NCBI GenBank assembly: GCA_965247115.1
Contig: CBDFGR010000002.1
Location: 1,498,669-1,562,668 of the forward strand
Source of the DNA: Myxococcota bacterium
GTDB lineage: Bacteria; Myxococcota_A; UBA9160; SZUA-336
Length of the DNA: 64,000 nt
Reading direction: 5' to 3'
Shown here: positions 1-12,069 of the stretch, piece after piece
Layout: every line of letters starts with the position of its first letter
Numbering within the stretch: position 1 is the first letter of the stretch
The notes under the pieces: generated by a model
The model's database searches: none
Told to the model about the DNA's origin: nothing
Seen by the model: only the letters and a program-made list of their open reading frames with translations
Made by a program: the position numbers and the translations under genes

Positions 1-642
1 CAGGGCGCGCACGCTCACGTCTACCGCAACGAGGCCGCGCAGGCTCGTGGTGAGCGAGGGCAGTCCCGTCTCCAGGTTGGCGGTGTCCGAAAGGATGATC
101 ACGTCGGCGGAGAGACGCTCGCGATGGGCGCGCAGGAACTCCGCCAGGTGTGGAGACCCGATCTCCTCCTCGCCCTCGACGATCAGCTTGACGTTCGTCG
201 GCAGCTCGGAGCTCGCCTCGAGCCAGGCGCGCAGCGCAGCAAGGTGCAGCATCAGTCCCGCCTTGTCGTCGACCACCCCGCGTCCATACAGACGACCATC
301 CGCGCGGTATGTGGGCTCGAAGGGCGGCGACTCCCAAAGCTCCTCGCGCCCCGGGGGCTGAACGTCGTGGTGCGCGTAGATCAGCACGGTCGTCGCAGCG
401 GGTCCGTGGTCCACGCGTTCTCCGACGACGTAGGGATGAGCCCCACCCTGGGCCACGACCTCCACCTTCGAAAGCCCCGTGTCCCGCAGCAGCTCGGCCA
501 CCGCGTCGGCCGAGCGCGCCACCTGCGCCGGCTCGAAGCCCGCCGCGGACACACCCGGAATGCGAGCAAGCTCGCACAGTTGCGCGAACGTTCGAGCGAA
601 GCCCTGCTCTAGCGCCGCGAGGGCCTGCTCGAGCTGCGCCAT
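1..642 (-). CDS. M20 family metallopeptidase (ArgE/DapE-like), partial: C-terminal part lies beyond window start
   Basis: Reverse-strand translation from ATG (complement of 640-642) reads MAQLEQALAALEQGF...HHDVQPPG...GRGVVDDKAG...EGEEEIGS, motifs typical of M20 peptidases. Absent from ORF track because no stop codon occurs before the window edge. Confidence 0.7.
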   Translation of the reverse strand, partial: MAQLEQALAALEQGFARTFAQLCELARIPGVSAAGFEPAQVARSADAVAELLRDTGLSKVEVVAQGGAHPYVVGERVDHGPAATTVLIYAHHDVQPPGREELWESPPFEPTYRADGRLYGRGVVDDKAGLMLHLAALRAWLEASSELPTNVKLIVEGEEEIGSPHLAEFLRAHRERLSADVIILSDTANLETGLPSLTTSLRGLVAVDVSVRAL

Positions 643-689
643 CACTCCTCCCCAAACGGCAGAGTAGCAGAGCCGTTAGAATCCCCCGC

Positions 690-2246
690 ATGAGCTGGAA
701 GCCCGAGGTGGACGGAATCGAGCAACGCCGTCGGCTCGCTCTATTGCAGGGCGGAGAGGACGCGATCCGCACCCAGCACGAGCGTGGCCGGCTTACGATT
801 CGCGAACGCATCGACGGCCTATTCGACCGCGGCACATTCCAGGAGCAGGGGCCGATCGCGGGCGTATCTGACGTCGACGACAGGGGCGAGCTCATCGGCT
901 TCAGCCCGGCGAACTACGTGCTAGGCCTCGGGCGCATCGATGGACGCCTCGTCGCGGTGGGCGGCGAGGACTTTACGCTGCGCGGCGGCTCGCCCTCTCC
1001 GGCGGGCTTCCGCAAGTCCGTAATGGCGGAGGAGCTCGCGTGCCGCTACCGGGTACCGCTCGTTCGGTTCCTCGAGGGAGGGGGCGGCAGCGTGGCCCCG
1101 GCTCGGGGACCCGCGTCCGCGGCCACCGTCGAGTCGCCAGCGACCGCACCGCGGTTCATGAGCGTGATGCAGGCCATGGGAATGGTGCCAGTCGTCGCCG
1201 GTGCCATGGGAGCCGTCGCCGGTCTTCCGGCGGCGCGGCTAGCTGCCTCGCACCTCTCGATCATGACTGGGGATACGGCGCAGGTGATGATCGGCGGGCC
1301 CGCACTCGTCGAGCGGGCAACCGGACACTCGCTCTCCAAGGAAGAGCTCGGCGGCCCGAAGGTGCACCTGAAGAGTGGCGTGGTCGACAACGTCGCTCCC
1401 GACGAGCGCGGCGTGTTCGAGCAAGCCAGGCGCTTCCTGAGCTATCTGCCAACGAACGTCTGGGAGCGCGCTCCCCTTACGAGCTGCGACGACGCGCCGG
1501 ACCGCTGCGAGGAGGAGCTCCTGTCCATCATTCCCCGGGATCGCCGCAAGCCCTACAAGATGCGCAGGCTCATCGAGCTCCTCGTCGACCGCGGCAGCTT
1601 TTTCGAGATGTCGGCAGGCTACGGCCAGAGCCAGATCACCGGCCTGGCCCGTCTGAACGGCCAGCCCGTCGGTGTGCTCGCGAACGATCCCTACTTCTAC
1701 GCGGGTGCCATGACGGCAGCGGGCGCGCAGAAGGTGACGCGCTTCGTCGACCTGTGCGACACGTTCCACCTGCCGATCGTGAGTCTTGCCGATGAGCCCG
1801 GCTTCATGATCGGCCCGGAGGCGGAGCGCTCGGCAACGATCCGCTACGGGACCGCCACCCTGTTTGCGATCATGCAGTCGACCGTCCCCTGGGCCACGGT
1901 CATGGTACGCAAGACCTTCGGCGTTGCAGGTGCCGCGCACTTCGGTCCACACGGACACACGCTGGCCTGGCCGTCTGCCGAGTCCGGCGCGCTACCGCTC
2001 GAGGGCGGCGTCGCCGTCGCGTACCGACGAGAGATCGCCGCCGCACCCGACCCAGAAGCCAAGCGCCGCGAGCTCGAAGAGCAGCTCGCGAGCCGCCGCT
2101 CCCCCTACGCCAGCGCCGAAGGCTTCGGTGTCTCGGACCTGATCGACCCCCGCAACACGCGCCCCGCGCTCTGCAACTGGACCGAATGGATCCAGCCCCG
2201 CCTGGAACAGCACCTGGGCCCCCGCGCCTACACCGTTCGCCCGTGA
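690..2246 (+). CDS. acyl-CoA carboxylase carboxyltransferase subunit (propionyl-CoA carboxylase beta-like)
   Basis: In-frame ATG at 690 inside track ORF 309..2246; MSWKPEVDGIEQRRRLALLQGGEDAIRTQHERGRLTIRERIDGLFDRGTFQE... is a typical carboxyltransferase N-terminus; length about 518 aa fits. Confidence 0.8.
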   Translation: MSWKPEVDGIEQRRRLALLQGGEDAIRTQHERGRLTIRERIDGLFDRGTFQEQGPIAGVSDVDDRGELIGFSPANYVLGLGRIDGRLVAVGGEDFTLRGGSPSPAGFRKSVMAEELACRYRVPLVRFLEGGGGSVAPARGPASAATVESPATAPRFMSVMQAMGMVPVVAGAMGAVAGLPAARLAASHLSIMTGDTAQVMIGGPALVERATGHSLSKEELGGPKVHLKSGVVDNVAPDERGVFEQARRFLSYLPTNVWERAPLTSCDDAPDRCEEELLSIIPRDRRKPYKMRRLIELLVDRGSFFEMSAGYGQSQITGLARLNGQPVGVLANDPYFYAGAMTAAGAQKVTRFVDLCDTFHLPIVSLADEPGFMIGPEAERSATIRYGTATLFAIMQSTVPWATVMVRKTFGVAGAAHFGPHGHTLAWPSAESGALPLEGGVAVAYRREIAAAPDPEAKRRELEEQLASRRSPYASAEGFGVSDLIDPRNTRPALCNWTEWIQPRLEQHLGPRAYTVRP

Positions 2247-2328
2247 GCTCGCGCTCAATCGTTCGCGTTCGGCCGGGGCGATCGAATAGCATGGGGTGGA
2301 GGCCCCGAGAACGGGTCGCGGAGCGTCG

Positions 2329-3261
2329 ATGGATCTCAAGGTTCGGATCGGGGTAGGGACGGCGACGTTTCCCTTCTCGAGCGCCGGCGCATACTGGCGT
2401 TGGGTCGACCTGCTGGAGTCGAGCAACGTCGACTCGCTGTGGCAAACGGACCGGCTGACGGGGAGGCAGCCCTTTCTCGAGGCCATGAGCGCGATGGCGG
2501 CACTGGCAGGGGCGACGGACAGGCTCAAGTTCGGGATGAACGCGGTGGTCGTGAGCCTTCGCGATCCGCTACTGCTGGCCAAGCAGTGCGCGACCATCGA
2601 CTACCTGAGCGACGGGCGGCTCTTGCCCGTCTTCGGAGTCGGTGGGGACAACGCGCCGGAGTGGAAAGCCACGGGCAGGAGCCCGAGGCGTCGCGGGCGC
2701 CTGGCAGACGAAGCCCTGGAGATCATGCGCCGACTCTGGACCGAAGAGCGCGTCAGCTTCGAGGGTGAGCACTTCCACTACCACGAGGCCAGCATCGCGC
2801 CGCGCCCGGTCCAGAAACCGCTGCCACTGTGGATCGGCGGCAGCAGCAAGGCGGCGATCCGCCGCACCGCGCGACTCGGCACAGGCTGGCTCGCCGGCAT
2901 CCAGTCTCCAGCACAGGTCAAGCCCGTCGTCGCCGCGATCAAGGAGGCGGCCGCCGAAGCCGGGCGCAAGATCGACGCAGATCACTACGGCGCCGGCATC
3001 CCCTTCTTCTTCGGGAGCTGGGACGATCCGGAGGTCGAGCAGATCGCGCGGGCCCGGGGGAGACTTCCCGGTGGAGCCGATCCCCGGAGCTACTTCGCGA
3101 TCGGCGACGCCGCGGCCGTTCTCAACCGCATCCGAGAGTACCGAGACGCGGGCGCCTTCAAGTTCGTGCTGATTCCGATCGCTCGGGGAGACCGCGCGAT
3201 CAGCGAGCAGACACAGCGCCTGGTCGAGGAGGTTCTGCCCGTCGCGCACGCCTGGACCTGA
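2329..3261 (+). CDS. luciferase-like (LLM class) flavin/F420-dependent oxidoreductase
   Basis: ATG at 2329 inside ORF 2296..3261; MDLKVRIGVGTATFPF...LWQTDRL...GRLLPVFGVGG pattern of LLM family; about 310 aa. Confidence 0.7.
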   Translation: MDLKVRIGVGTATFPFSSAGAYWRWVDLLESSNVDSLWQTDRLTGRQPFLEAMSAMAALAGATDRLKFGMNAVVVSLRDPLLLAKQCATIDYLSDGRLLPVFGVGGDNAPEWKATGRSPRRRGRLADEALEIMRRLWTEERVSFEGEHFHYHEASIAPRPVQKPLPLWIGGSSKAAIRRTARLGTGWLAGIQSPAQVKPVVAAIKEAAAEAGRKIDADHYGAGIPFFFGSWDDPEVEQIARARGRLPGGADPRSYFAIGDAAAVLNRIREYRDAGAFKFVLIPIARGDRAISEQTQRLVEEVLPVAHAWT

Positions 3262-3310
3262 TCGCGCCGCTGCGCTCAGGCCGCTGGCACGACACGCCGA
3301 TCCGGTTCGC

Positions 3311-4927
3311 ATGGCCGTGTCCGAGCAAGCTCATCCCGCGCTAGTCGTCCGCGGCTCCTGTAGCGAGTGCGGCGGTCCGTTTCGCGCCGGCATCTGGGAC
3401 CACTCGTTCCACTGCGAATACTGCGGGTCTCTCCTGCTGTCGAAGCGCGAGCTGGGCGGCGAAGTGTACGTCGTCACCTCGGGGCGGAACCTCGCGGTGC
3501 TCGACGTGATCATCGCGAGGGAGTCGGATGAGCTGCGCTCCAGGCTGGCCGGGCGTTACAGGAGCGATGACGGCCTGAGCCTGGAGCTCCCCGCGTTCGT
3601 CGAGGCCAAGGTGACCACGCTCCAGGCGGAGCTGCGCGCCTCGCTCGAGCTCGTGGAGACGATCGACTTCTTCGCCCCGTACCTGGTTCGCGAGCAGACC
3701 GTCATGCAGGGCATCCTGGGCAGGCGACGGGGCCTGAAGGAGTCCTTCGTCCAGGCTTTTCTCGTGGAAGAGCTGGCGCGCCGGTACGACGCCTCGGACT
3801 TCAACCTGCGGGACCGCGGCCTCAAGATCCGGGGCCTGGAGCTGCAGCTCCTGCGCGACACTCACTTCGCCGAGAGCGAGCCCCGCTTCCTTGAGGCCAA
3901 CACGGCTGCGGAGTTCGACTCGCGTCTGGATCGCTCGGCGTTTCGCGTGCGAGCCGACACCCAGATCATCAGCCGCATTCACGACACGACGCGTGAGCGC
4001 CGCCTCAGCGTCTACAAGCACATGAGCTACGCCTGCGTGAAGCGCGACGCTGCTCCCGAGCGCTACCTGATCGACCGCCAGTTCGACGGCATCGCAGGCA
4101 GGCCCTCGGCGGAGGAGGCCGAGCGGTTTCGAGCCCTGCCGCTCCGGCCGATCTCCCAGGTCCTGGTGCCACCGGACATCCGGGCGATCGCGTCGCAGTG
4201 TCCGAACTGCGGCTGGGAGCTGGAGCTGCCAGCGCGAGAGAGCATCGTCTTCTGTCCTACCTGCTGGCTCGGCGTGTCGGTGACACCGGAGGGGCTTCAG
4301 GCGCACACCTACCGGGTCGAGCAGGCGCAGCCTCTGAGCCATGACCGGCGGCTGCTCTATTTCCCGTTCTGGGCGTTTCCTTTCCGGGTGCGCGCGGAGG
4401 GCGCGCTCTACACGCGACTCTGGGACTGGCTGGCCGCAGTCTCCCCCCAGCCGCTGGCGGAGCAGTTCCGCGAGACGGACCTGCCGGAGAGCACGTTCTT
4501 CCTGCCGGCGCGCGAGGTCTTCGGCAGTCCAGAGCTGGACGACGTGTTTGCCCAGCTCACCGGTTGGGTGAACTGGCGCCAGCCCGAGCTGCTTCGGGAT
4601 CGCCCGCCACCCGCCGAGCGGACGAGCGCGCTCGGCGTGGAGCTCTCGCCCGCCGAGGCCTGGAAGCTCGCTCGCTTTGCCCTGCTCGCACTGCACGACG
4701 ACCAGAGCACGCGCCGCCTGAACGGCGGCAACTTCGGCCGGTACCTGGCGGAGGCGGAGACTCTGCAGGGCTCCGCGTTCCTGGCCCTCGTCCCGCTCAT
4801 CAGCAGGGGCGAGGACTGGGACCCGGGTCTCAAACTACTGGGCTCCAGCGTGCGGGGGTTTCCCATGGCCCGGATCGAGGGCAGCGCCGCCAGGGCGCGA
4901 CTGACCAAGAGCTTCAACCTCGTGTGA
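3311..4927 (+). CDS. hypothetical protein with two CxxC...CxxC zinc-ribbon motifs
   Basis: ORF track 538 aa; CSECGG...HCEYCG near N-terminus and CPNCGW...CPTCW mid-protein; no family recognised by eye. First gene of a co-directional cluster with 5016..5504 and 5510..6646. Confidence 0.5.
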   Translation: MAVSEQAHPALVVRGSCSECGGPFRAGIWDHSFHCEYCGSLLLSKRELGGEVYVVTSGRNLAVLDVIIARESDELRSRLAGRYRSDDGLSLELPAFVEAKVTTLQAELRASLELVETIDFFAPYLVREQTVMQGILGRRRGLKESFVQAFLVEELARRYDASDFNLRDRGLKIRGLELQLLRDTHFAESEPRFLEANTAAEFDSRLDRSAFRVRADTQIISRIHDTTRERRLSVYKHMSYACVKRDAAPERYLIDRQFDGIAGRPSAEEAERFRALPLRPISQVLVPPDIRAIASQCPNCGWELELPARESIVFCPTCWLGVSVTPEGLQAHTYRVEQAQPLSHDRRLLYFPFWAFPFRVRAEGALYTRLWDWLAAVSPQPLAEQFRETDLPESTFFLPAREVFGSPELDDVFAQLTGWVNWRQPELLRDRPPPAERTSALGVELSPAEAWKLARFALLALHDDQSTRRLNGGNFGRYLAEAETLQGSAFLALVPLISRGEDWDPGLKLLGSSVRGFPMARIEGSAARARLTKSFNLV

Positions 4928-5015
4928 GAGCTCCTCAAGCTGGGCCCGGAGCACGCCGAAGCACCTCTTTGCACCTGGCGCTCTTGACCTTCGCTGACGA
5001 ACGGGGAGCACGGCT

Positions 5016-5504
5016 TTGACAGATCTCAATCGAGTGATTCGCGGCCAGAGGAACGCCCTCGAGGCCCTGGTCCAGCACGTCCCCGGCTTTCGCGGCTACT
5101 TCGATCGGGAGAATCGGCGCGAGGCAGACCGTCTGGTCCGCGACTTCGGCGTGACCCGGCTCGAGCGTCTTTGCTCGGAGCTCAGCGAGACCACCAAGCA
5201 GGCTGCGCTCTCCGAGATGGACACCTATCAGGAGACGATCAACCAGGCGGAGACTCTGCGCAACGCCCTGCGCCATGCCGACCAGGGCTACTCGGGCTTT
5301 TTCGCGGAGATCAAGTGGGACGACGAGGACGCCCTGCAGGCCGTCTACTGCCTGGACCTGGAGCTGGTCCTCGACATCGAAGCACTCGTCTCGGACTTCG
5401 ATTCCGGAGCACCCGCGCCCGAACGACTTCGCGGCGAGCTCGTAGGACTCAAACGCAGGCTCGAAGATCGCCGCGCCGCGATCCTCGGCCTGGTCGGGGA
5501 GTGA
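5016..5504 (+). CDS. hypothetical small protein (about 160 aa)
   Basis: ORF track 162 aa; codon at 5016 is TTG (alternative GTG at 5034); stop 6 nt before the next gene start, suggesting co-transcription. No recognisable motif. Confidence 0.4.
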   Translation: MTDLNRVIRGQRNALEALVQHVPGFRGYFDRENRREADRLVRDFGVTRLERLCSELSETTKQAALSEMDTYQETINQAETLRNALRHADQGYSGFFAEIKWDDEDALQAVYCLDLELVLDIEALVSDFDSGAPAPERLRGELVGLKRRLEDRRAAILGLVGE

Positions 5505-5509
5505 GCGGC

Positions 5510-6646
5510 ATGTCGCAGTTCATCGAGGTCATCGAAAGCCTGGACACAACGGGCGACACCATCGTGTCGCGCTATCCCGCGGACGGTTCCGCCGAGATCA
5601 AGCTGGGGGCGCAGCTCGTCGTCCGTGAGAGCCAGGCGGCGGTTTTCTTCCGAGACGGACGAGCTCTGGATACGCTCGGGCCGGGGCGCCACACGCTGTC
5701 GACGCTGAACGTGCCCATCCTGACCAAGGTGCTGTCGCTGCCGACCGGGTTCACGAGCCCCTTCCGCGCGGAGGTCTACTTCCTGAACCTCAAGACCTTC
5801 ACGAATCAGAAGTGGGGAACCACAGAGCCCATCCTGTTCCGCGACGAGGAGCTGTCGATGGTTCGGCTGCGCTCGTTCGGCATGTTCTCGTTCCGGATCA
5901 CAAACGCCCAGGTGTTTCTCAACACGCTCTCCGGGACCGTCGGACGCCTTTACACCGACTGCATCGCGTCGTTCTTCCGCAGCTTCATCATCACGCAGGT
6001 CGCGGACTTCCTCGGCGAGCACCTGCGGAGCGTGCTCGACCTCGCGCAGTACTACAACGAGCTGAGCGCGGGCATCAAGGCGCACCTGATCTCGGACTTC
6101 GAGAAGTACGGCGTCACCGTCAGCGACTTCAAGATCCTGTCGATCTCGCCGCCCGACCACGTCCAGGAGATGATCGACAAGCGGGCCGGCATCGCGGCTG
6201 TTGGCAGCTTGGACAACTTCCTGCGCTATCAGGCCGGACACGCGCTGGGTATGGTCGGCGAGGCGGAGGGTGGAGAGGGCAGCTCCCTCTTGGGAGCCGG
6301 CGTCGGTCTCGGTGCCGGTGTGGGGATGGGCACCGGCGTTGCCGGCATGGTCTCGCAGGCGCTGTCCGGTGCAACGACTGGAGCTGCCGCGACAGGCTCG
6401 GTCTGCGCACGCTGTGCCGGCCAGATTCCGCCGGGCGCCGGCTTCTGTCCTGGTTGCGGAGGCCCGGTTGCGACCGCAACGAGCTGTACCAGCTGCCAGG
6501 CAAACGTCCCCGATGCGGCGAACTTCTGCCCCCAGTGCGGGGCCCAGCAAGGCGGCGCGCCATGTCCGAATTGCGAGGAGCAGATCGCGCTGGAGGCTCG
6601 TTTCTGCCCGAGCTGCGGGCACGGGCTCGAGGATCCCGGCGCCTAG
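5510..6646 (+). CDS. SPFH/band-7 (stomatin/flotillin-like) domain protein with three C-terminal zinc-ribbon motifs (COG4260-like)
   Basis: ATG at 5510 inside ORF 5171..6646; MSQFIEVIES...RESQAAVFFRDGRALDTLGPGRH... SPFH-like N-domain, Gly-rich linker, then CARCAG..CPGCGG, CTSCQ..CPQCG, CPNCEE..CPSCGH. Confidence 0.7.
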   Translation: MSQFIEVIESLDTTGDTIVSRYPADGSAEIKLGAQLVVRESQAAVFFRDGRALDTLGPGRHTLSTLNVPILTKVLSLPTGFTSPFRAEVYFLNLKTFTNQKWGTTEPILFRDEELSMVRLRSFGMFSFRITNAQVFLNTLSGTVGRLYTDCIASFFRSFIITQVADFLGEHLRSVLDLAQYYNELSAGIKAHLISDFEKYGVTVSDFKILSISPPDHVQEMIDKRAGIAAVGSLDNFLRYQAGHALGMVGEAEGGEGSSLLGAGVGLGAGVGMGTGVAGMVSQALSGATTGAAATGSVCARCAGQIPPGAGFCPGCGGPVATATSCTSCQANVPDAANFCPQCGAQQGGAPCPNCEEQIALEARFCPSCGHGLEDPGA

Positions 6647-6685
6647 CAGCAATCCGGGGCGGACCCGCTTAGACTTGGCTCCGAG

Positions 6686-8050
6686 ATGGGTCAGGGCTTA
6701 CTTACCGATCTGTACCAGATCACGATGGCCAACGCCTACTGGAACAGTGGCTTGGCCGAGCGCGAGGCGGTCTTCCAGCTCTACTTCCGCCGGAACCCGT
6801 TCGGCGGGGGCTATGCAGTGGCTGCGGGGCTGGCCGCGGCGATTGACTCACTGGAGTCCCTGTCTTTCGACGACGAGGATCTGGCCTACCTCGCGAAGCT
6901 CCAGGGAAACGACGGCCGCCCGCTCCTGGACCGAGGGTTCCTGGCGGGGCTCCGAAGCCTGCGCTTCGACTCCGACCTCGACGCGGTGCCTGAGGGGACC
7001 GTGGTGTTCGAGGGGGAGCCGTTGCTGCGCGTCCGCGGCGCCATCGTCCAGTGCCAGCTGGTCGAGACGGCTCTCCTGAACCTGCTGAACTTCCAGACCC
7101 TGGTGGCAACGAAGGCGGCCCGAGTCTGCCTCGCAGCGGCCGGAGATCCGGTGCTCGAGTTCGGGCTCCGGCGCGCGCAGGGACCGGATGGCGGGGTGTC
7201 GGCCAGTCGCGCCGCCTATCTCGGCGGCTGCGCCGCGACCTCGAACGTGCTGGCTGGCAAGCGCTTCGGCATCCCGGTCCGCGGCACGCACGCTCACAGC
7301 TGGGTCATGGCCTTCGACAGCGAGCAGGGGGCCTTCGAGGCGTGGGCCGAGGCTATGCCGAACAACTGCGTCTTCCTGGTGGACACCTACGACACGCTGG
7401 CGGGGGTGCGTCTGGCCGTGAAGGTGGGAACCCGTCTGCGCGAGCGCGGCCACGAGCTTGCCGGCGTCCGGCTCGATTCGGGGGATCTTGCCGATCTGAG
7501 TGTGGCGGCGCGCCAGCTGCTCGACGCGAGTGGCTTCCCGAAAGCGGAGATCGTGGCCAGCAACGATCTCGACGAGCACGCGATCGAAGCGCTCAAGCGA
7601 CGAGGCGCTGCCGTCAGCGTCTGGGGAGTCGGGACTCGGCTCGCCACCGCGCACGACGATCCGGCCCTTGGCGGGGTGTTCAAGCTGGCGGCAATGCGAG
7701 ATGCGGAGGGCCGCTGGACCTATCCCGTGAAACACTCGGAGGACCCGGAGAAGTCGACGCTGCCTGGCATCCACCAGACGCGCCGCTTTCTGCACGGCCG
7801 CAAGTTCCTGCGAGACCTGATTTTCGACGCGGAGCTCGGCGCGGACCAGACCGACGAGCCACACGAGGATCTCCTCAGACCAGTTCTGCGGTCCGGACGC
7901 CGGGTCGAAGAGCCCCCTACCCTGGACGAGTCGCGCGCGCACGCGCTCGATCAGCTCGCGCGGCTTCCCGCCGGGACGAAGCGGCTCGTGAACCCCGACC
8001 CCTATCCGGTGGAGGTCGACACCCGCCTCGCAGCCCGCACGCGCACGTGA
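6686..8050 (+). CDS. pncB: nicotinate phosphoribosyltransferase
   Basis: 454-aa ORF; [15 protein letters not shown]...[13 protein letters not shown]...VDTYDT motifs characteristic of PncB. Confidence 0.9.
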
Positions 8051-8175
8051 GAGCACTCATCCTCGTCGACCTGCAGAACGACTTCCTGCCCGGAGGCTCG
8101 CTCGCGGTGCCCGATGGAAACGGCGTGATCGACGTCGCCAACGCGGTCCAACCCCGCTTCCCCCTGGTCGTCTGA
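8047..8175 (+). pseudogene. pncA: nicotinamidase/isochorismatase-family (pncA-like) N-terminal remnant, 42 codons then stop
   Basis: GTG at 8047 overlapping pncB stop; [42 protein letters not shown] matches PncA N-terminus (about 190 aa expected); no continuation in other frames before the convergent gene at 8240. Confidence 0.5.
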
Positions 8176-8239
8176 GTCCGCCGAGGGACGTTCCCGACCT
8201 CCGAGGTCTGGCTGCTTGGGCTTGCGACCGCGGCGCAAC

Positions 8240-9034
8240 TTACGGAGAGATCAGCTTCGAGAGCGTGTGGAGCGCCCGCTCCATGCGCGGGCCGTACCAG
8301 CTCAGGAGCTCGCCCTCGATCACATGGATCCTACCGCTACGAGCTGCGGCGCAATCGAGCTGCAAGAGCTCGTTCCGATCGGACTCACCGAAGCAGTACG
8401 GCTCCGTGGGCAGAAGGATCACCTCCGGTGCGGACTCCTCCAGTCGGCGCTCGTCGATGCGCGGATAGCGCTTCTGGCCAGCAAAGCAGTTGACGCCACC
8501 GCAGACCCGCATGAGATCGTGCGCGAAGGTGTCCTCACCGACCGCCATGTATGGGTGCTTCCAGATGAGCGCCGCCACCCGGTCTCCTTCCTCGCGCGGG
8601 GAGGTCTTTGCCCGCGCGAGTTCGACACGCAGGGCGATCTGCTCCGCTACGGGTGAGGTTCCCGTCAATAGGCCAAGTGTGCGGATGTCTTCGATGGCCT
8701 CGGCGAGCGTGCGCGCGTACGTGACGAACACCCGTACACCCGCGGCTTCCAGGCGCTCAACGTCGCGCCGCCGGTTCTCCTCCTTGTTCGCGATGACCAG
8801 ATCGGGCTCCAGGCCCAGGATCGTGTCGAGCGAGGGATTCTTCGTCCCTCCGACGTGGGTCTTAGAGTGCACGCCCTCCGTCGGGTGAACACAGAACTCG
8901 GTAACTCCAACGATCTCGATGTCCAGACCGAGAGCGAAGAGCGTCTCGGTGATCGACGGGACGAGCGACACGACTCGCTGCGGAGGGCGCTCAAAGTCGT
9001 GGCTCCTGCCGAGCGCGTCCAGGATTCGCGGCAT
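8240..9034 (-). CDS. periplasmic substrate-binding protein, TroA/BtuF-like (ABC-type cobalamin or Fe3+-siderophore binding fold)
   Basis: 264-aa ORF; RVVSLVPSITETLFALGL...VGVTEFC...PDLVIA and ...EVILLPTEPY pattern of class III periplasmic binding proteins. No ABC permease or ATPase adjacent. Confidence 0.65.
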   Translation of the reverse strand: MPRILDALGRSHDFERPPQRVVSLVPSITETLFALGLDIEIVGVTEFCVHPTEGVHSKTHVGGTKNPSLDTILGLEPDLVIANKEENRRRDVERLEAAGVRVFVTYARTLAEAIEDIRTLGLLTGTSPVAEQIALRVELARAKTSPREEGDRVAALIWKHPYMAVGEDTFAHDLMRVCGGVNCFAGQKRYPRIDERRLEESAPEVILLPTEPYCFGESDRNELLQLDCAAARSGRIHVIEGELLSWYGPRMERALHTLSKLISP

Positions 9035-9035
9035 C

Positions 9036-10133
9036 TCAGCTCGGCGCGGCCCACGGATCGGGATCGAGGTCGAGGAAGCTCAGGGTCTCGGCCCCGAGCG
9101 CCGCGAGCGCCGCGTACAGGCGCTCGAGTCCCGGACGCTCCGTCGGGGCGTGTCCGGCATCGAGGAGACACATGCCTCGATCTTGGGCCGCTCGCGCAGC
9201 GTGGTGGCCCAGATCGCCCGTCACGACGGCGTCCGCGCCCGCCGCCGCGGCCAGGCTCAGCAGCTCAGAGCCCGAGCCGGGGATCACCGCGACCCGGTCG
9301 AGCACCCGGTCGGGGTCGCCGGCACGACGCAGCGTCTTCGTGTGTAGCTCCTCGGCCGCGCGCTGCGCCAGCCCCTGGAGCGTGGTCCCCGCGGCGGGTG
9401 TCCCGACTCGCCCGACCATTCCTGCGTTGCCATGGCGCTCGTAGACGTCGTAGGTAGGCTCCTCGTAGGGATGTGCAGCCACGAGCGCTCCCAGTGCCAG
9501 AGCTTCCTTGGATCGCGGCACCACGAACTCGAGCCGTACCTCGGGTTCCTCGTTCAGCCGTCCCTGCTTGCCCGTGCGGGGCTGGGTAGCAGCTCCGGCG
9601 AAGAAGGTCCCCACGCCCTCGGAACGGTAGGAGCAGCTCGAGTAGTTCCCGATCCGCCCCGCGCCCGCGGCGGAGACCGCCTGGAGCACCGACGGCGCGG
9701 CCTCCACGGGCAGAAAGGTGACGATCTTCAGGACATCTTGGCCGTACAGGGGGGCGAAGCCGGAGAGCTCGTCCAGGCCGAGTACCTCCGCCAGTGCGTC
9801 GGAGGTTCCTCCCTCGGCGACGTCGAAGTTCGTGTGGACCACGGCCAGCGCCGTGCCAAGGCGCGCCAGCCGCAACGTCCTGCCTTCCGGCGTCGCTCCA
9901 CTGAGCAGAGTGTTCGTGGACCGGAACAGCAACGGGTGGTAGCTGACGAGCAGGTCCACGGGACCTTGCTCCAGACGCGCGACGACCTCCTCGGTCACCT
10001 CGTGACACACTGCAACTCGTTCCACACGTGCAGAGGCATCTCCAAGCTGGAGGCCGACCGGATCCCAGGCCGCCGCCTTCTCAAACGGCGCACGCTGACC
10101 GAGCGAGGCGAGAAAGTCGGCTACCGTCCGCAC
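9036..10133 (-). CDS. Nif3-like dinuclear metal center protein (GTP cyclohydrolase 1 type 2 homolog)
   Basis: 365-aa ORF (GTG start); C-terminal AVIPGSGSELLSLAAAAGADAVVTGDLGHHAARAAQDRGMCLLDAGHAPTE is typical of Nif3/YqfO family. Confidence 0.75.
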   Translation of the reverse strand: MRTVADFLASLGQRAPFEKAAAWDPVGLQLGDASARVERVAVCHEVTEEVVARLEQGPVDLLVSYHPLLFRSTNTLLSGATPEGRTLRLARLGTALAVVHTNFDVAEGGTSDALAEVLGLDELSGFAPLYGQDVLKIVTFLPVEAAPSVLQAVSAAGAGRIGNYSSCSYRSEGVGTFFAGAATQPRTGKQGRLNEEPEVRLEFVVPRSKEALALGALVAAHPYEEPTYDVYERHGNAGMVGRVGTPAAGTTLQGLAQRAAEELHTKTLRRAGDPDRVLDRVAVIPGSGSELLSLAAAAGADAVVTGDLGHHAARAAQDRGMCLLDAGHAPTERPGLERLYAALAALGAETLSFLDLDPDPWAAPS

Positions 10134-10186
10134 ACGTCGGATGGTAGCGCCTTTGCCGGCGCTGCCGACTGAGGTACGATCCCGTG

Positions 10187-10405
10187 ATGCACATCTCGAT
10201 TACGTACTGCGGGGCCTGAAACTACCTCCCGCAGGCCACCAGTCTGGCGGCCACGATCAAGGCAGAAGTCGGCGTCGAGACCGAGTTGATTCGCGGCGGC
10301 AGCGGCGTCTTCGACGTAGAGGTCGACGGCCGCACGATCTACTCCAAATCCGAGACCGGCCGCTTCCCCGAGCCGGACGAGATCCTCCCGGAGCTCAAGG
10401 GGTAG
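10187..10405 (+). CDS. selenoprotein W-like (Rdx/SelW/SelT family) small redox protein with in-frame UGA (Sec) at 10217-10219
   Basis: Manual translation from ATG 10187: MHISITYCGA-U-NYLPQATSLAATIKAEVGVETELIRGGSGVFDVEVDGRTIYSKSETGRFPEPDEILPELKG*; CxxU motif and FDVEVDG...SK...GRFP signature; not in ORF track because of the TGA. Confidence 0.75.
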
Positions 10406-10411
10406 TGGGCC

Positions 10412-10500
10412 TTTTGGGACCCGGCCGCGGGCGTCCGCGGCCACCCACCTCCGCTCAGGCCAGGGGCCTTCGCTGCGCGCGCCGCTCTCGCAGCGCTTGC
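10412..10500 (+). repeat. GC-rich ~90-bp multi-hairpin repeat, copy A (REP/RPE/MITE-like family)
   Basis: TTTTGGGACCCGGCCGCGGGCGTCCGCGGCCACCCACCTCCGCTCAGGCC-AGG-GGCCTTCGCTGCGCGCGCCGCTCTCGCAGCGCTTGC, immediately after the selenoprotein stop; matches copies B-H. Confidence 0.85.
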
Positions 10501-10570
10501 GCGGGTGCTTGGTCGAGGACGGGGTCGGGAGATGTCGACAGGGATGGAGGCGCGGCCTAGGCTCCGTCGC

Positions 10571-10933
10571 ATGAGGCGTCGGCTTCTGGTTGTCACAACG
10601 GCCGCGATCCTCGGCGTGGGTTGTCTGGGGCCAACGCCGAATCCGGAAACTTGCAGGATCGAGATCGTCGGCGTCGAGAGCGCCGTCAACAACAACAGAG
10701 GCTTCGACATCTCGTACCGCGTGAAGGGGTACGCGGGAACACCAGGGGTCGTCTCACTCGTCGCGCAACGACACGACGGCGGCTACCTGTCGGGAAAGGG
10801 CGTCGACGTCGGCCCCGGAGCTTTCGTCGCAATCATCGAGCAAAAGCTCACCGGTCCCGCAACAGGCTACGTCGCCCTGCTCGAAGTCGCCGACAGCCGC
10901 TCCCGCGCCAACGCCAAACCACCAGAGGCCTAG
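10571..10933 (+). CDS. putative small secreted protein or lipoprotein
   Basis: Within ORF 10505..10933; MRRRLLVVTTAAILGVGC... resembles a signal peptide with lipobox-like LGVGC; bracketed by repeat copies A and B in inverted orientation. Start uncertain. Confidence 0.4.
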   Translation: MRRRLLVVTTAAILGVGCLGPTPNPETCRIEIVGVESAVNNNRGFDISYRVKGYAGTPGVVSLVAQRHDGGYLSGKGVDVGPGAFVAIIEQKLTGPATGYVALLEVADSRSRANAKPPEA

Positions 10934-10953
10934 CAGTCGACCTCGGCACCGCA

Positions 10954-11043
10954 GCAAGCGCCGCGAACGCGGCGCGCGCAGCGAAGGCCCTCGGCCTGAG
11001 CGGAGGTGGGTGGCCGCGGACGCCCGCGGCCGGGTCCCACAAG
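10954..11043 (-). repeat. GC-rich ~90-bp repeat, copy B (inverted relative to A)
   Basis: GCAAGCGCCGCGAACGCGGCGCGCGCAGCGAAGGCCCTCGGCCTGAGCGGAGGTGGGTGGCCGCGGACGCCCGCGGCCGGGTCCCACAAG; ends next to the korB stop codon. Confidence 0.85.
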
Positions 11044-12069
11044 TTACGAGACGGTCCAGCGGTCGCCGGCGAAGAGGAGGTCGGCGAGGCCTGCGTCGCC
11101 ATGCGCGAGCTCGGCCTGGGACTGCTCCTGCGTTTCACCGTCGAAGGTTGGCTCCTCCACGGCCCGCAGCACGCCGATCGGCGTGGGGAAGTCGGGCGCC
11201 TCGCAGCGGGCCAGCAACATGGACAACGTCGGGTCCCGATTCGTCTCGTCGTGCAGGACCTCCACGCCGTCGTCCTTGGCACCGACGTGACCAGCGTAGA
11301 GGCGCAGGTAGGTCGGGTTTAGCTTGAGCATACGATCGTGATCGTTGCCGTAGATGAGCGGCTGACCGTTCTCGAGCACGAGCAGGTGGTCGGACTTGAT
11401 CTTGCGGTCCTTGACCTCATCGAACACACCGTCGTTATAGACCGGGCAGTTCTGGTAGATCTCGAGGAAGGCAGAGCCTTTGTGCTCGGCCATCCGGCGA
11501 ATCATTTCCTGCAGGTGACGGGTCTCCGTGTCTACCGTCCGCGCGACGAAGGTCGCCTCGGCTCCCAGCGCCAGCGAGAGGGTGCGAAATGGCCGGGCCA
11601 CCGATCCGTTTGGCGACGACTTCGTCTTCATGCCGATCTCGGAGGTGGGCGAGAACTGACCCTTGGTCAGCCCGTAGACCTTGTTGTTGAACAGCAGGAT
11701 CTTCAGATCCACGTTGCGACGCAGCATGTGGATCAGGTGGTTTCCACCGATAGACAGCCCATCACCGTCGCCGGTCACCACCCACACGGACAGGTCGGGT
11801 CGTGCGATCTTCAGTCCGGTCGCGATGGCCGGCGCGCGCCCGTGAATCGTGTGAAAACCGAACGTGTCCATGTAGTACGGAAAGCGCGAGCTGCAGCCGA
11901 TCCCGGACACGAAGACGATGTTCTCGCGCGGGACGCCCAGCTCGGGCATGACCTTCTGCATCTGGGCGAGGATGGCGTAGTCGCCACAGCCCGGGCACCA
12001 GCGCACCGCCTCGTCCGGAATGAAGTCCTTCTTGGTCAGCTTCGGGGCATCTGCGGTCTGAATGCTCAT
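11044..12069 (-). CDS. korB: 2-oxoglutarate:ferredoxin oxidoreductase beta subunit
   Basis: 341 aa; WCPGCGDYAIL...GIGCSSRFPYYM...VVTGDGDGLSIGGNHLIHMLRRN, TPP-binding beta subunit signature; 4-bp overlap with korA. Confidence 0.85.
   Translation of the reverse strand: MSIQTADAPKLTKKDFIPDEAVRWCPGCGDYAILAQMQKVMPELGVPRENIVFVSGIGCSSRFPYYMDTFGFHTIHGRAPAIATGLKIARPDLSVWVVTGDGDGLSIGGNHLIHMLRRNVDLKILLFNNKVYGLTKGQFSPTSEIGMKTKSSPNGSVARPFRTLSLALGAEATFVARTVDTETRHLQEMIRRMAEHKGSAFLEIYQNCPVYNDGVFDEVKDRKIKSDHLLVLENGQPLIYGNDHDRMLKLNPTYLRLYAGHVGAKDDGVEVLHDETNRDPTLSMLLARCEAPDFPTPIGVLRAVEEPTFDGETQEQSQAELAHGDAGLADLLFAGDRWTVS

Follow-up and report, generated by a model that had tools for sequence, protein, structure and literature searches.

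Introduction

SPFH proteins are present in all domains of life and generally oligomerise, and their mode of action is understood for few partnerships: HflK/C with FtsH, stomatin with NfeD, and YdjI with YdjGH and PspA. In this work, we analysed three genes, referred to as A, B and C, at positions 3311–6646 of a 64-kb stretch of DNA from a Myxococcota bacterium (the whole stretch is called the window). They encode a double zinc-ribbon protein (A), a small protein predicted to fold as a four-helix bundle (B) and an SPFH protein (C).

In the stomatin–NfeD, HflK/C–FtsH and flotillin–YqiJ/YuaF systems, the SPFH oligomer is encoded with, and organises, a dedicated partner (PMC11237479). Closest to the locus studied here is pspA-ydjGHI of Bacillus, whose products YdjI, YdjG, YdjH and PspA have been described (PMC8581546, PMC11237479, PMC9239133, bioRxiv 10.64898/2026.02.06.704340). 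YdjI, also named SamI, is soluble and combines an SPFH domain with a low-complexity stretch and a zinc finger at the C-terminus; its membrane localisation requires YdjG and YdjH, and it recruits PspA and restrains signalling by SamGH (PMC8581546; bioRxiv 10.64898/2026.02.06.704340). YdjG is composed of two zinc ribbons, a YpeB-related domain and a transmembrane (TM) segment (PMC11237479).

Our interpretation, to which we assign a probability of roughly one half, is that A-B-C would encode a variant of the YdjI/SamI-type SPFH scaffold system, for which a function in membrane stress is proposed by analogy.

Results

Conservation of the Locus Across Phyla

The first-pass annotation had singled out this locus as a poorly described module, and the comparison of gene neighbourhoods across phyla shows that it is genuine and conserved. 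A scan in which each GTDB species was represented by a single genome detected A homologues at 16 loci; 15 of them are labelled Myxococcota, Myxococcales, Deltaproteobacteria or 'bacterium', and one is labelled Gammaproteobacteria. When these are taken together with one more locus (L001), the order A-B-C is kept at 17/17 loci holding an A homologue, and the identity to the window proteins is 43–86% for A, 45–88% for B and 59–95% for C. Insertions adjoin the trio and are never inside it, as illustrated by the mer operon in L001, which comes from a related metagenome-assembled genome. This insertion is a complete mercury-resistance cluster (L001:1239-4437; merR, mercuric reductase, merT, an HMA/merP-like gene and merB) that sits between a luciferase-like gene and A-B-C, with an unannotated gene of 372 aa (4824-5942) just before A. 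The locus labelled 'uncultured Gammaproteobacteria bacterium' (L017, CAXMNF010000129.1) carries A-B-C with Myxococcota-type flanks (carboxyl transferase, periplasmic binding protein, NIF3); because these match the flanks in Myxococcota metagenome-assembled genomes (MAGs), an error of binning or labelling is probable for this contig.

The module also occurs outside Myxococcota. The identity of the C homologues is at least 58% and then reaches a plateau of 46–50% in sequences of Methylomirabilia, Manganitrophaceae, Thermodesulfobacteriota and Dependentiae sources. We inspected six loci of this plateau, and five of them contain a gene for a protein of 151–171 aa ending 9–17 nt before the SPFH gene; these small genes show the B motifs and match the B profile with E values from 1e-20 to 7e-43. 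The B-C pairs found in this way outside Myxococcota come from Methylomirabilia (L021), Dependentiae (L112), Thermodesulfobacteriota (L113) and two further loci (L022 and L023). In L021 and L023, a gene of the A family (463 and 490 aa; E about 1e-18; motifs CPNCGW, LPFW and FLPAFRY) is located directly after the SPFH gene. In L022 this place is taken by three genes (247, 352 and 219 aa), each opening with an A-type ribbon, and the product of the last one aligns with the C-terminal module of A. In the sixth locus, from Manganitrophaceae (L111), an A-family gene follows C, which has no B gene before it.

With B as the anchor, a metagenome scan yielded 80 loci. In those that were testable, that is, with at least 150 nt of sequence after B, a Band_7_1 (SPFH) gene was located directly downstream of B in 73/73 cases. 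A lay 5' of B in 25 of these loci and 3' of C in 8, and in 13 loci with 3 kb or more of sequence downstream it was not detected. A gene encoding a response-regulator receiver (REC) domain was directly upstream of B in 13/32 loci with B-C and without A, in 0/21 A-B-C loci and in 0/10 B-C-A loci. The 13 loci are L051, L062, L064, L068, L070, L072, L075, L078, L079, L094, L097, L099 and L103 (examples of the REC genes are L079:311-931, L070:7133-7969 and L099:4428-4811). Some of these upstream genes encode an N-terminal HTH_17/MerR-type domain, and one encodes REC only. The clustering of neighbours from raw open reading frames (ORFs) was noisy in high-GC contigs and served only to spot the response-regulator neighbour. 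Since REC never occurs where A is present, the data suggest that the two input modules alternate.

Taking the A-B-C order at 17/17 loci and the Band_7_1 gene after B at 73/73, we conclude that the linkage of the three genes is far beyond chance. The three-gene module of the first-pass annotation is not really a fixed unit; the B-C pair forms its invariant core and A is an exchangeable accessory, which can be found as A-B-C, as B-C-A, split, absent, or with REC in its place. These data also bear on the possibility that the adjacency is inherited synteny of three unrelated neighbours in one lineage, without functional coupling. The luciferase-like, periplasmic-binding-protein and NIF3 flanks are indeed also conserved within the Myxococcota clade. 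However, B and C are adjacent in all 73 testable loci, with unrelated flanks and in several phyla, A has been re-linked in other orders (B-C-A and C-A) outside Myxococcota, and insertions such as the mer operon stand beside the trio and never within it. The cross-phylum data thus effectively refute this explanation.

A lineage of lower GC content (L060, L063, L067, L077, L082 and L085) has B-C between gap-pgk-tpi and a gene for a DAGK_cat/YegS-type lipid kinase (e.g., L063:3722-4624), and ExbD/TolQ-like genes follow the kinase gene. The lipid kinase neighbour hints at a lipid or membrane connection, but it may reflect no more than synteny of the lineage.

Protein C Is an SPFH Protein of the YdjI/SamI Kind

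C belongs to the family Band_7_1 (PF13421; COG4260), with 200.9 bits versus a Pfam gathering cutoff of 24 (E 2.5e-59), and the match runs from residue 21 to residue 227 over positions 3–208 of the 211 in the profile. The tail is matched by the Pfam families DZR (E 9.4e-19) and Zn_Ribbon_1 (E 3.7e-14). Both the Pfam results and the sequence of residues 299–369 agree with the initial description of C as a COG4260-type SPFH protein with a Gly-rich linker and three zinc ribbons. Homologues of C are numerous (4383 at E ≤ 1e-10).

C shares with YdjI/SamI the Band_7_1 family, the lack of an intrinsic anchor, and a layout in which the SPFH domain is followed by a low-complexity, Gly-rich stretch and C-terminal zinc ribbons; it is thus of the YdjI/SamI type. 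When 15 Band_7_1 proteins were compared, a Gly/Met-rich stretch was seen after the SPFH domain in most of them, and it was clearest in the proteins of the B-C and C-A loci, where a near-identical G-x-G/GMM-PGM pattern is present. The tails that follow vary, with two or three ribbons or no zinc ribbon at all. In the close relatives P0151, P0152, P0157 and P0158, precomputed Pfam matches place SHOCT (PF09851) where C has its ribbons, and the contig of P0151 is equal in length (9887 bp) to that of the A homologue P0034. Read by eye, the tail of the Ralstonia protein is SHOCT-like, and those of the Paracoccus, Vibrio and Tsukamurella proteins are GYF-like. The C-terminal tail of Band_7_1 proteins is thus modular, and this includes the YdjG-linked proteins of L104, L105, L108 and L109.

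The general principle of an SPFH protein with a dedicated partner is shared with stomatin–NfeD, HflK/C–FtsH and flotillin–YqiJ/YuaF. The locus differs from these systems in that C is not membrane-anchored and that A and B match no NfeD, protease or YqiJ/YuaF family in Pfam; neither NfeD (OB-fold or ClpP-like) nor protease families were found by Pfam in A, B or the flanks.

Probable Relationship of Protein A to YdjG

The first-pass annotation had compared the locus with pspA-ydjGHI of Bacillus. For this comparison, the YdjG side was represented by YdjG-like proteins encoded on plasmids and chromids. A published primer sequence for B. subtilis ydjG had no match among viral contigs. Band_7_1 genes directly followed by genes annotated as 'hypothetical' or 'zinc ribbon domain-containing' were found in Paracoccus, Enterococcus, Comamonas, Tsukamurella and Vibrio. 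The YdjG-like proteins have two N-terminal ribbons, the core motifs Y(L/S)P(Y/F)W and LLPVW...VNGQTGxVxG and, in all of them, a C-terminal TM helix; in Enterococcus, a TPM-domain gene is located after the YdjG-like gene, as is ydjH in Bacillus.

When the A family was aligned with five of the YdjG-like proteins using hhalign, a probability of 96% was obtained (E 4.6e-9, 237 colinear columns, score 75.5), with residues 12–268 of A paired with residues 103–375 of the Paracoccus protein. As controls, the reversed alignment gave 0.2%, and block-shuffled alignments that kept the ribbons intact gave 11–91%, with only 30–74 columns and scores up to 58.5. With HMMER, the A profile matched each of the YdjG-like proteins (E from 7e-7 to 4e-15), and the sub-hits outside the ribbons were colinear and individually weak. 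From these alignments, a remote homology between the N-terminal half of A, which has no anchor, and the YdjG core is probable but not certain.

The likeness to the Bacillus locus therefore stands in part: C is of the YdjI kind, and the N-terminal half of A aligns with the zinc-ribbon and YpeB/PepSY-like core of proteins that are also encoded beside an SPFH gene. In contrast, A has no TM segment, whereas the YdjG-like proteins end in a TM helix; A is about 200 aa longer, with a second zinc ribbon and an alpha/beta module; the gene order differs; and no equivalent of the TPM-domain protein YdjH was identified by Pfam among A, B and C, B being unrelated to YdjH and PspA (<2% probability). The absence of PspA from the module, already remarked upon, was confirmed and extended to the window: Pfam gave no match to PspA_IM30 in A, B, C or the flanking ORFs at positions 309–12069, and a phmmer search with E. 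coli PspA against all ORFs of the 64 kb returned nothing at E ≤ 10.

Outside Bacillus, YdjI-YdjG pairs such as those of Paracoccus (WGR62703/WGR62702) and Enterococcus (WP_005472382/WP_003127086) resemble our locus in that a Band_7_1 gene is linked to a zinc-ribbon/PepSY-like partner, which is annotated as 'zinc ribbon domain-containing' or 'TFIIB-type zinc ribbon', and the C-A order of L111 and of the B-C-A loci mimics their order of SPFH gene and then partner. They differ in that the partners carry both ribbons at the N-terminus and end in a TM helix, unlike A. The SPFH proteins borne on plasmids, several of them followed by YdjG-like genes, share only 31–42% identity with C across the SPFH domain, and zinc-ribbon tails are frequently missing from them. 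An HMM search did not find a B-family gene in six loci of this type (L104–L109). Two further SPFH neighbourhoods that have not been described were noticed here: in Paracoccus ferrooxidans pFER4 (L105:2692-7410), genes for TelA ('toxic anion resistance protein') and DUF2927 are followed by those for the Band_7_1 SPFH protein and a YdjG-like zinc-ribbon membrane protein; in Ralstonia, a DUF350 gene and the Band_7_1 gene precede a gene for a 482-aa protein with two zinc ribbons and a TM region.

Regarding A itself, the two CxxC...CxxC pairs that had been noted in the 538-aa protein were located at residues 17/20 with 35/38 and 297/300 with 315/318. Within the Myxococcota clade, the four cysteines of ribbon 1 do not vary; in the family as a whole, C35 and C38 are kept by 90% or more of the sequences, and some distant members, such as that of L021, lack this ribbon. 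The AlphaFold2 model built from the family alignment (predicted local distance difference test score, pLDDT, 86; predicted template modelling score, pTM, 0.85) shows in order a ribbon, a pair of helices, a sheet whose antiparallel strands are very long, the second ribbon and a mixed alpha/beta module. The N-terminal module carries the motifs VPY(W/E) (residues 122–124), NLRDRGLK (164–172) and LxDxxFxxxAG (253–263). The C-terminal module also exists separately, as the 219-aa gene product of L022 and as stand-alone database proteins of about 240–340 aa. The invariant residues of the family are P123, D255, the four cysteines of ribbon 2, P352 and P399, and Y124, R138, G170, F353, W354 and A400 are shared by 90% or more of the sequences. 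No catalysis-like constellation of His, Asp, Glu or Ser is found among the conserved residues, and the pattern of conservation looks structural or interaction-related. The second ribbon and the LPFW strand resemble once more the starting element of the YdjG-like core; an internal duplication of A was considered and rejected, as hhalign picks up the two ribbons only (68%).

The A family comprises 634 cluster representatives at E ≤ 1e-3 in an exhaustive profile search, and 131 of the 144 inspected have no strongly hydrophobic 19-mer; in A itself, no 19-mer scores above 1.25. Among the same 144 representatives, no fusion of A to B, C or REC was seen. In a word-indexed search, about 45 homologues were recovered, none of them named and each from a metagenome or MAG; no homologues were found on plasmids. 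The long homologues have N-terminal extensions that carry extra ribbons or nothing known; in one subgroup (P0209, P0212, P0214, P0215 and P0218; 830–870 aa), the extension is helical, of about 300 aa and without a Pfam match, and other members have additional TFIIB-type ribbons, a GYF_2 domain or a hydrophobic segment at the N-terminus.

Scans of A against Pfam, NCBIfam and PADLOC gave only sub-threshold similarity to zinc ribbons, and single-sequence and profile searches of the PDB gave ribbon matches only. We considered in this context that the ribbons of A and C could bind DNA or RNA, as do those of TFIIB, RpoP and ribosomal proteins, in the control of transcription or translation. Some A homologues are annotated as 'RNA polymerase subunit RPC12/RpoP' or 'RNA-binding Zn-ribbon protein', the A profile matches the ribbons of eS31, eS27, RpoP and LysW (E 0.01–0.5), and HTH+REC regulators adjoin B in some loci. 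However, these similarities are limited to a ribbon of about 30 residues and fall below the family thresholds, the remainder of A aligns with membrane-stress proteins of the YdjG kind, and the replacement of the ribbons by SHOCT in close relatives of C argues for a role in protein or membrane docking. We regard a nucleic-acid-binding module as very improbable.

Protein B Is a Predicted Four-Helix Bundle Without a Family Name

B gave no match to any family in the Pfam, NCBIfam and PADLOC scans, and single-sequence and profile searches against the PDB returned designed coiled coils only, PspA, Vipp1 and ESCRT-III being absent among the profile matches. An assignment of A or B to unrelated, well-characterised families, a point raised by the first-pass annotation, did not emerge from the profile searches of these collections. 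The AlphaFold2 model obtained with the family alignment (pLDDT 80) is a four-helix bundle with helices at residues 25–62, 65–86, 104–130 and 135–161, and its structural matches are generic helical bundles only, with designed proteins at the top.

The alignment across phyla revealed as invariant residues P23, G24, Y28, R35, D38, R42, L49, G91, G94, F96, L107, D114 and R152, several of which fall in two motifs, PGFxGY and GYSGFF, that flank helix 1 and the loop between helices 2 and 3. Given the up-down topology of the modelled bundle, both motifs would be at the same end, and they could form one patch.

B resembles PspA, Vipp1 and ESCRT-III in being small, all-helical, soluble and encoded beside an SPFH gene, which is a positional analogy only. 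A relationship to PspA was rejected (hhalign probability of 0.5% versus PspA_IM30, and no Pfam match), as were relationships to TPM/YdjH (1.4% versus the Enterococcus TPM protein) and to TelA (below 2% versus the TelA encoded near the Paracoccus SPFH gene). A word-indexed search recovered about 38 homologues, likewise without names and of metagenome or MAG origin. Distant members (31–36% identity) are encoded in L002 (L002:6001-8487), L003 and L004, on a contig with planctomycete-type genes; in the L002-type loci, the gene is followed by that of a 650-aa TPR protein and no SPFH gene is nearby. A TPR protein gene also precedes B-C in L022 (L022:3628-4386), and TPR proteins may be a further class of partners of the B family.

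It is known that the helical bundles of MLKL and NLR-CC open and damage the membrane. By comparison, the SPFH protein could restrain the B bundle in an anti-phage or conflict system, and B would open and damage the membrane once A or another sensor detects infection. This is quite unlikely, given that there is no match in PADLOC (in PADLOC-DB 2.0, only two zinc-ribbon-level matches to Cas12 C-termini appeared, with E about 0.02 and 12 bits), that the gene context is of the housekeeping kind, and that no mobile element was found to carry the genes (plasmids searched for A, IMG/VR for B).

Organisation of the Locus

The extent of the three-gene locus, the common direction of the genes and the gaps of 88 and 5 nt were all as the first-pass annotation had given them, and the features of the locus are collected in Table 1. 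For B, which had been described as a protein of about 160 aa with a TTG or GTG start, the start is TTG, preceded by a GGGGAG sequence; the resulting length and the N-terminus M-x-D-L/V recur among the homologues. The reading frames of A, B and C are supported as coding by their high third-position GC (0.81–0.88, versus 0.40–0.50 at position 2), in a region of 68% GC. A TTG ORF at 5171-6646 that appears in the mechanical ORF list was rejected as an artefact of high GC content, being out of frame with B, which it overlaps. Other spurious long ORFs run across the real genes (3341-4696 and 5345-6652, both on the minus strand, with many antisense ones in 3300–6700); such overlaps are typical of high-GC DNA and are a trap for mechanical ORF lists.

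Table 1. Features of the A-B-C locus (window coordinates; residues are numbered within each protein).
Feature	Coordinates	Strand	Residues	Details and basis
Gene A, soluble double zinc-ribbon protein, putative accessory subunit, no family name	3311..4927	+	538 aa	ATG start
Putative YdjG/SamG-like N-terminal module of A	3344..4114	+	12–268	Zinc ribbon, two helices, long antiparallel beta-sheet
Zinc ribbon 1 of A	3359..3424	+	C17, C20, C35, C38	Alignments
Zinc ribbon 2 of A	4199..4264	+	C297, C300, C315, C318	Invariant across the A family
C-terminal alpha/beta module of A	4265..4927	+		Family motifs (L/F)PFW (residues 351–354) and PA(R/F) (399–401)
A-B spacer, 88 nt	4928..5015			GGGGAG at 5003-5008, 7 nt before the TTG of B
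Gene B, acidic soluble protein, predicted four-helix bundle, no family name	5016..5504	+	162 aa	TTG start
B motif 1, PGFRGY	5082..5099	+	23–28	P23, G24 and Y28 invariant, then R35, D38, R42; cross-phylum alignments
B motif 2, QGYSGFF	5283..5303	+	90–96	G91, G94 and F96 invariant; loop between helices 2 and 3; alignments, model
B-C junction	5496..5512	+		GGGGAG for C at 5496-5501, in the last codons of B; TGA 5502-5504; ATG 5510
Gene C, YdjI/SamI-type SPFH protein	5510..6646	+	378 aa	ATG start; Pfam match
SPFH/Band_7_1 domain of C	5570..6190	+	21–227	Pfam
Gly/Ala/Val/Met-rich hydrophobic, glycine-zipper-like segment of C	6281..6364	+	258–285	Maximum of the hydrophobic 19-residue window (KD19) 1.44
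Three tandem CxxC...CxxC zinc ribbons of C (six CxxC)	6404..6616	+	299–369	Pfam, sequence

The layout of the B-C junction would allow translational coupling, and a comparably short B-C spacing was seen in other phyla by sequence inspection. No sigma-70-like promoter or terminator-like site was found in the A-B spacer by the promoter and terminator scan of positions 3000–7000, a scan that was uninformative. Two scans of the window gave no tRNA, tmRNA or Rfam family at the gathering threshold. In the Pfam results, the flanks have a housekeeping appearance, with genes for a carboxyl transferase, a luciferase-like monooxygenase, a nicotinate phosphoribosyltransferase, a periplasmic binding protein and NIF3. 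The KD19 maximum across A, B and C is that of the Gly-rich segment of C, so that no TM helix is predicted in any of the three proteins.

Discussion

If A-B-C is a variant of the YdjI/SamI-type scaffold, C would oligomerise at the cytoplasmic side of the membrane, perhaps by way of its Gly/Met-rich segment, and B would bind C as a dedicated client or adaptor, the likely contact being the aromatic/glycine patch of PGFxGY and GYSGFF. The 5-nt junction, with the ribosome-binding site of C inside B, would help the co-production of both proteins. A would be an optional subunit that docks on the complex, as input or adaptor, where Bacillus has the membrane-anchored YdjG, and in other lineages a response regulator controlled by phosphorylation may take an equivalent position. 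In SamGHI, the SPFH protein restrains a stress-signalling partner and recruits an effector; by analogy, C may hold B in check or concentrate it, and B would be released or activated upon a perturbation of the envelope or the membrane.

Several points weigh against this interpretation. The B-C and A-C contacts are inferred, and the structure predictions were of monomers; the fold of B is generic and uninformative about activity. The score between the A and YdjG profiles comes in part from the ribbon alone, and the per-domain E values outside the ribbons are 4e-4 to 0.06. Because the flanks are partly syntenic in the Myxococcota clade, the 17 A-B-C loci are not independent, and the absence of B from L111 indicates that B is not indispensable to every SPFH protein of the C subfamily. 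Finally, the Gly-rich segment of C stays below the usual TM threshold of 1.6, and all three proteins lack a predicted TM helix, unlike the membrane-bound Bacillus system.

The last of these points is also what favours a cytosolic assembly independent of the membrane, in which C would form a soluble ring or cage with B and A as internal or capping subunits, acting in sequestration or storage and not in surveillance of the membrane. In vaults, an SPFH-like shoulder domain forms part of the cage. Most members of the A family are soluble as well, and no gene for a membrane protein is consistently linked to the B-C core. We nevertheless consider this arrangement unlikely, as Band_7_1 proteins repeatedly show a Gly/Met-rich hydrophobic segment behind the SPFH domain, one lineage has a DAGK/YegS-type lipid kinase gene after C, and YdjI, the only family member that has been studied, acts at the membrane (PMC8581546).

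A bolder version of the scaffold interpretation can be put forward tentatively, as one that may well prove wrong: B-C would be the core of an undescribed SPFH system that spans phyla and runs parallel to those linked to PspA. B would be a new kind of effector or signal transducer, a compact helical bundle that the SPFH oligomer holds and then releases on stress, with tuning by interchangeable inputs (TPR proteins, a response regulator or A as a soluble protein of the YdjG kind). As A, B and C lack predicted TM helices, it is even conceivable that they build a soluble SPFH cage.

In the searchable literature on Band_7_1, PF13421, COG4260 and operons combining SPFH and zinc-ribbon proteins, we found neither a four-helix family of the B type nor a soluble YdjG-like family. 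B is apparently a core component new to the literature, whereas the kind of scaffold represented by YdjI-YdjG (SamGHI) is already known, and the present evidence does not reveal a new biochemical activity or principle.

In conclusion, the locus points to one more SPFH partnership beside the few that are understood, extending across several phyla, in which a Band_7_1 subfamily is tied to an unnamed small four-helix protein. The YdjG-like zinc-ribbon proteins appear to have a soluble branch, represented by at least the 634 clusters of the A family, and the definition of the boundaries of A and B provides two candidates for new family models. B and C make up a two-protein core that can be tested by biochemistry and cryo-electron microscopy, and the naturally occurring range of input modules (A, a response regulator or neither) can be used to ask how SPFH scaffolds are regulated. 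The locus is thus a good lead for comparative genomics and a clean structural target.

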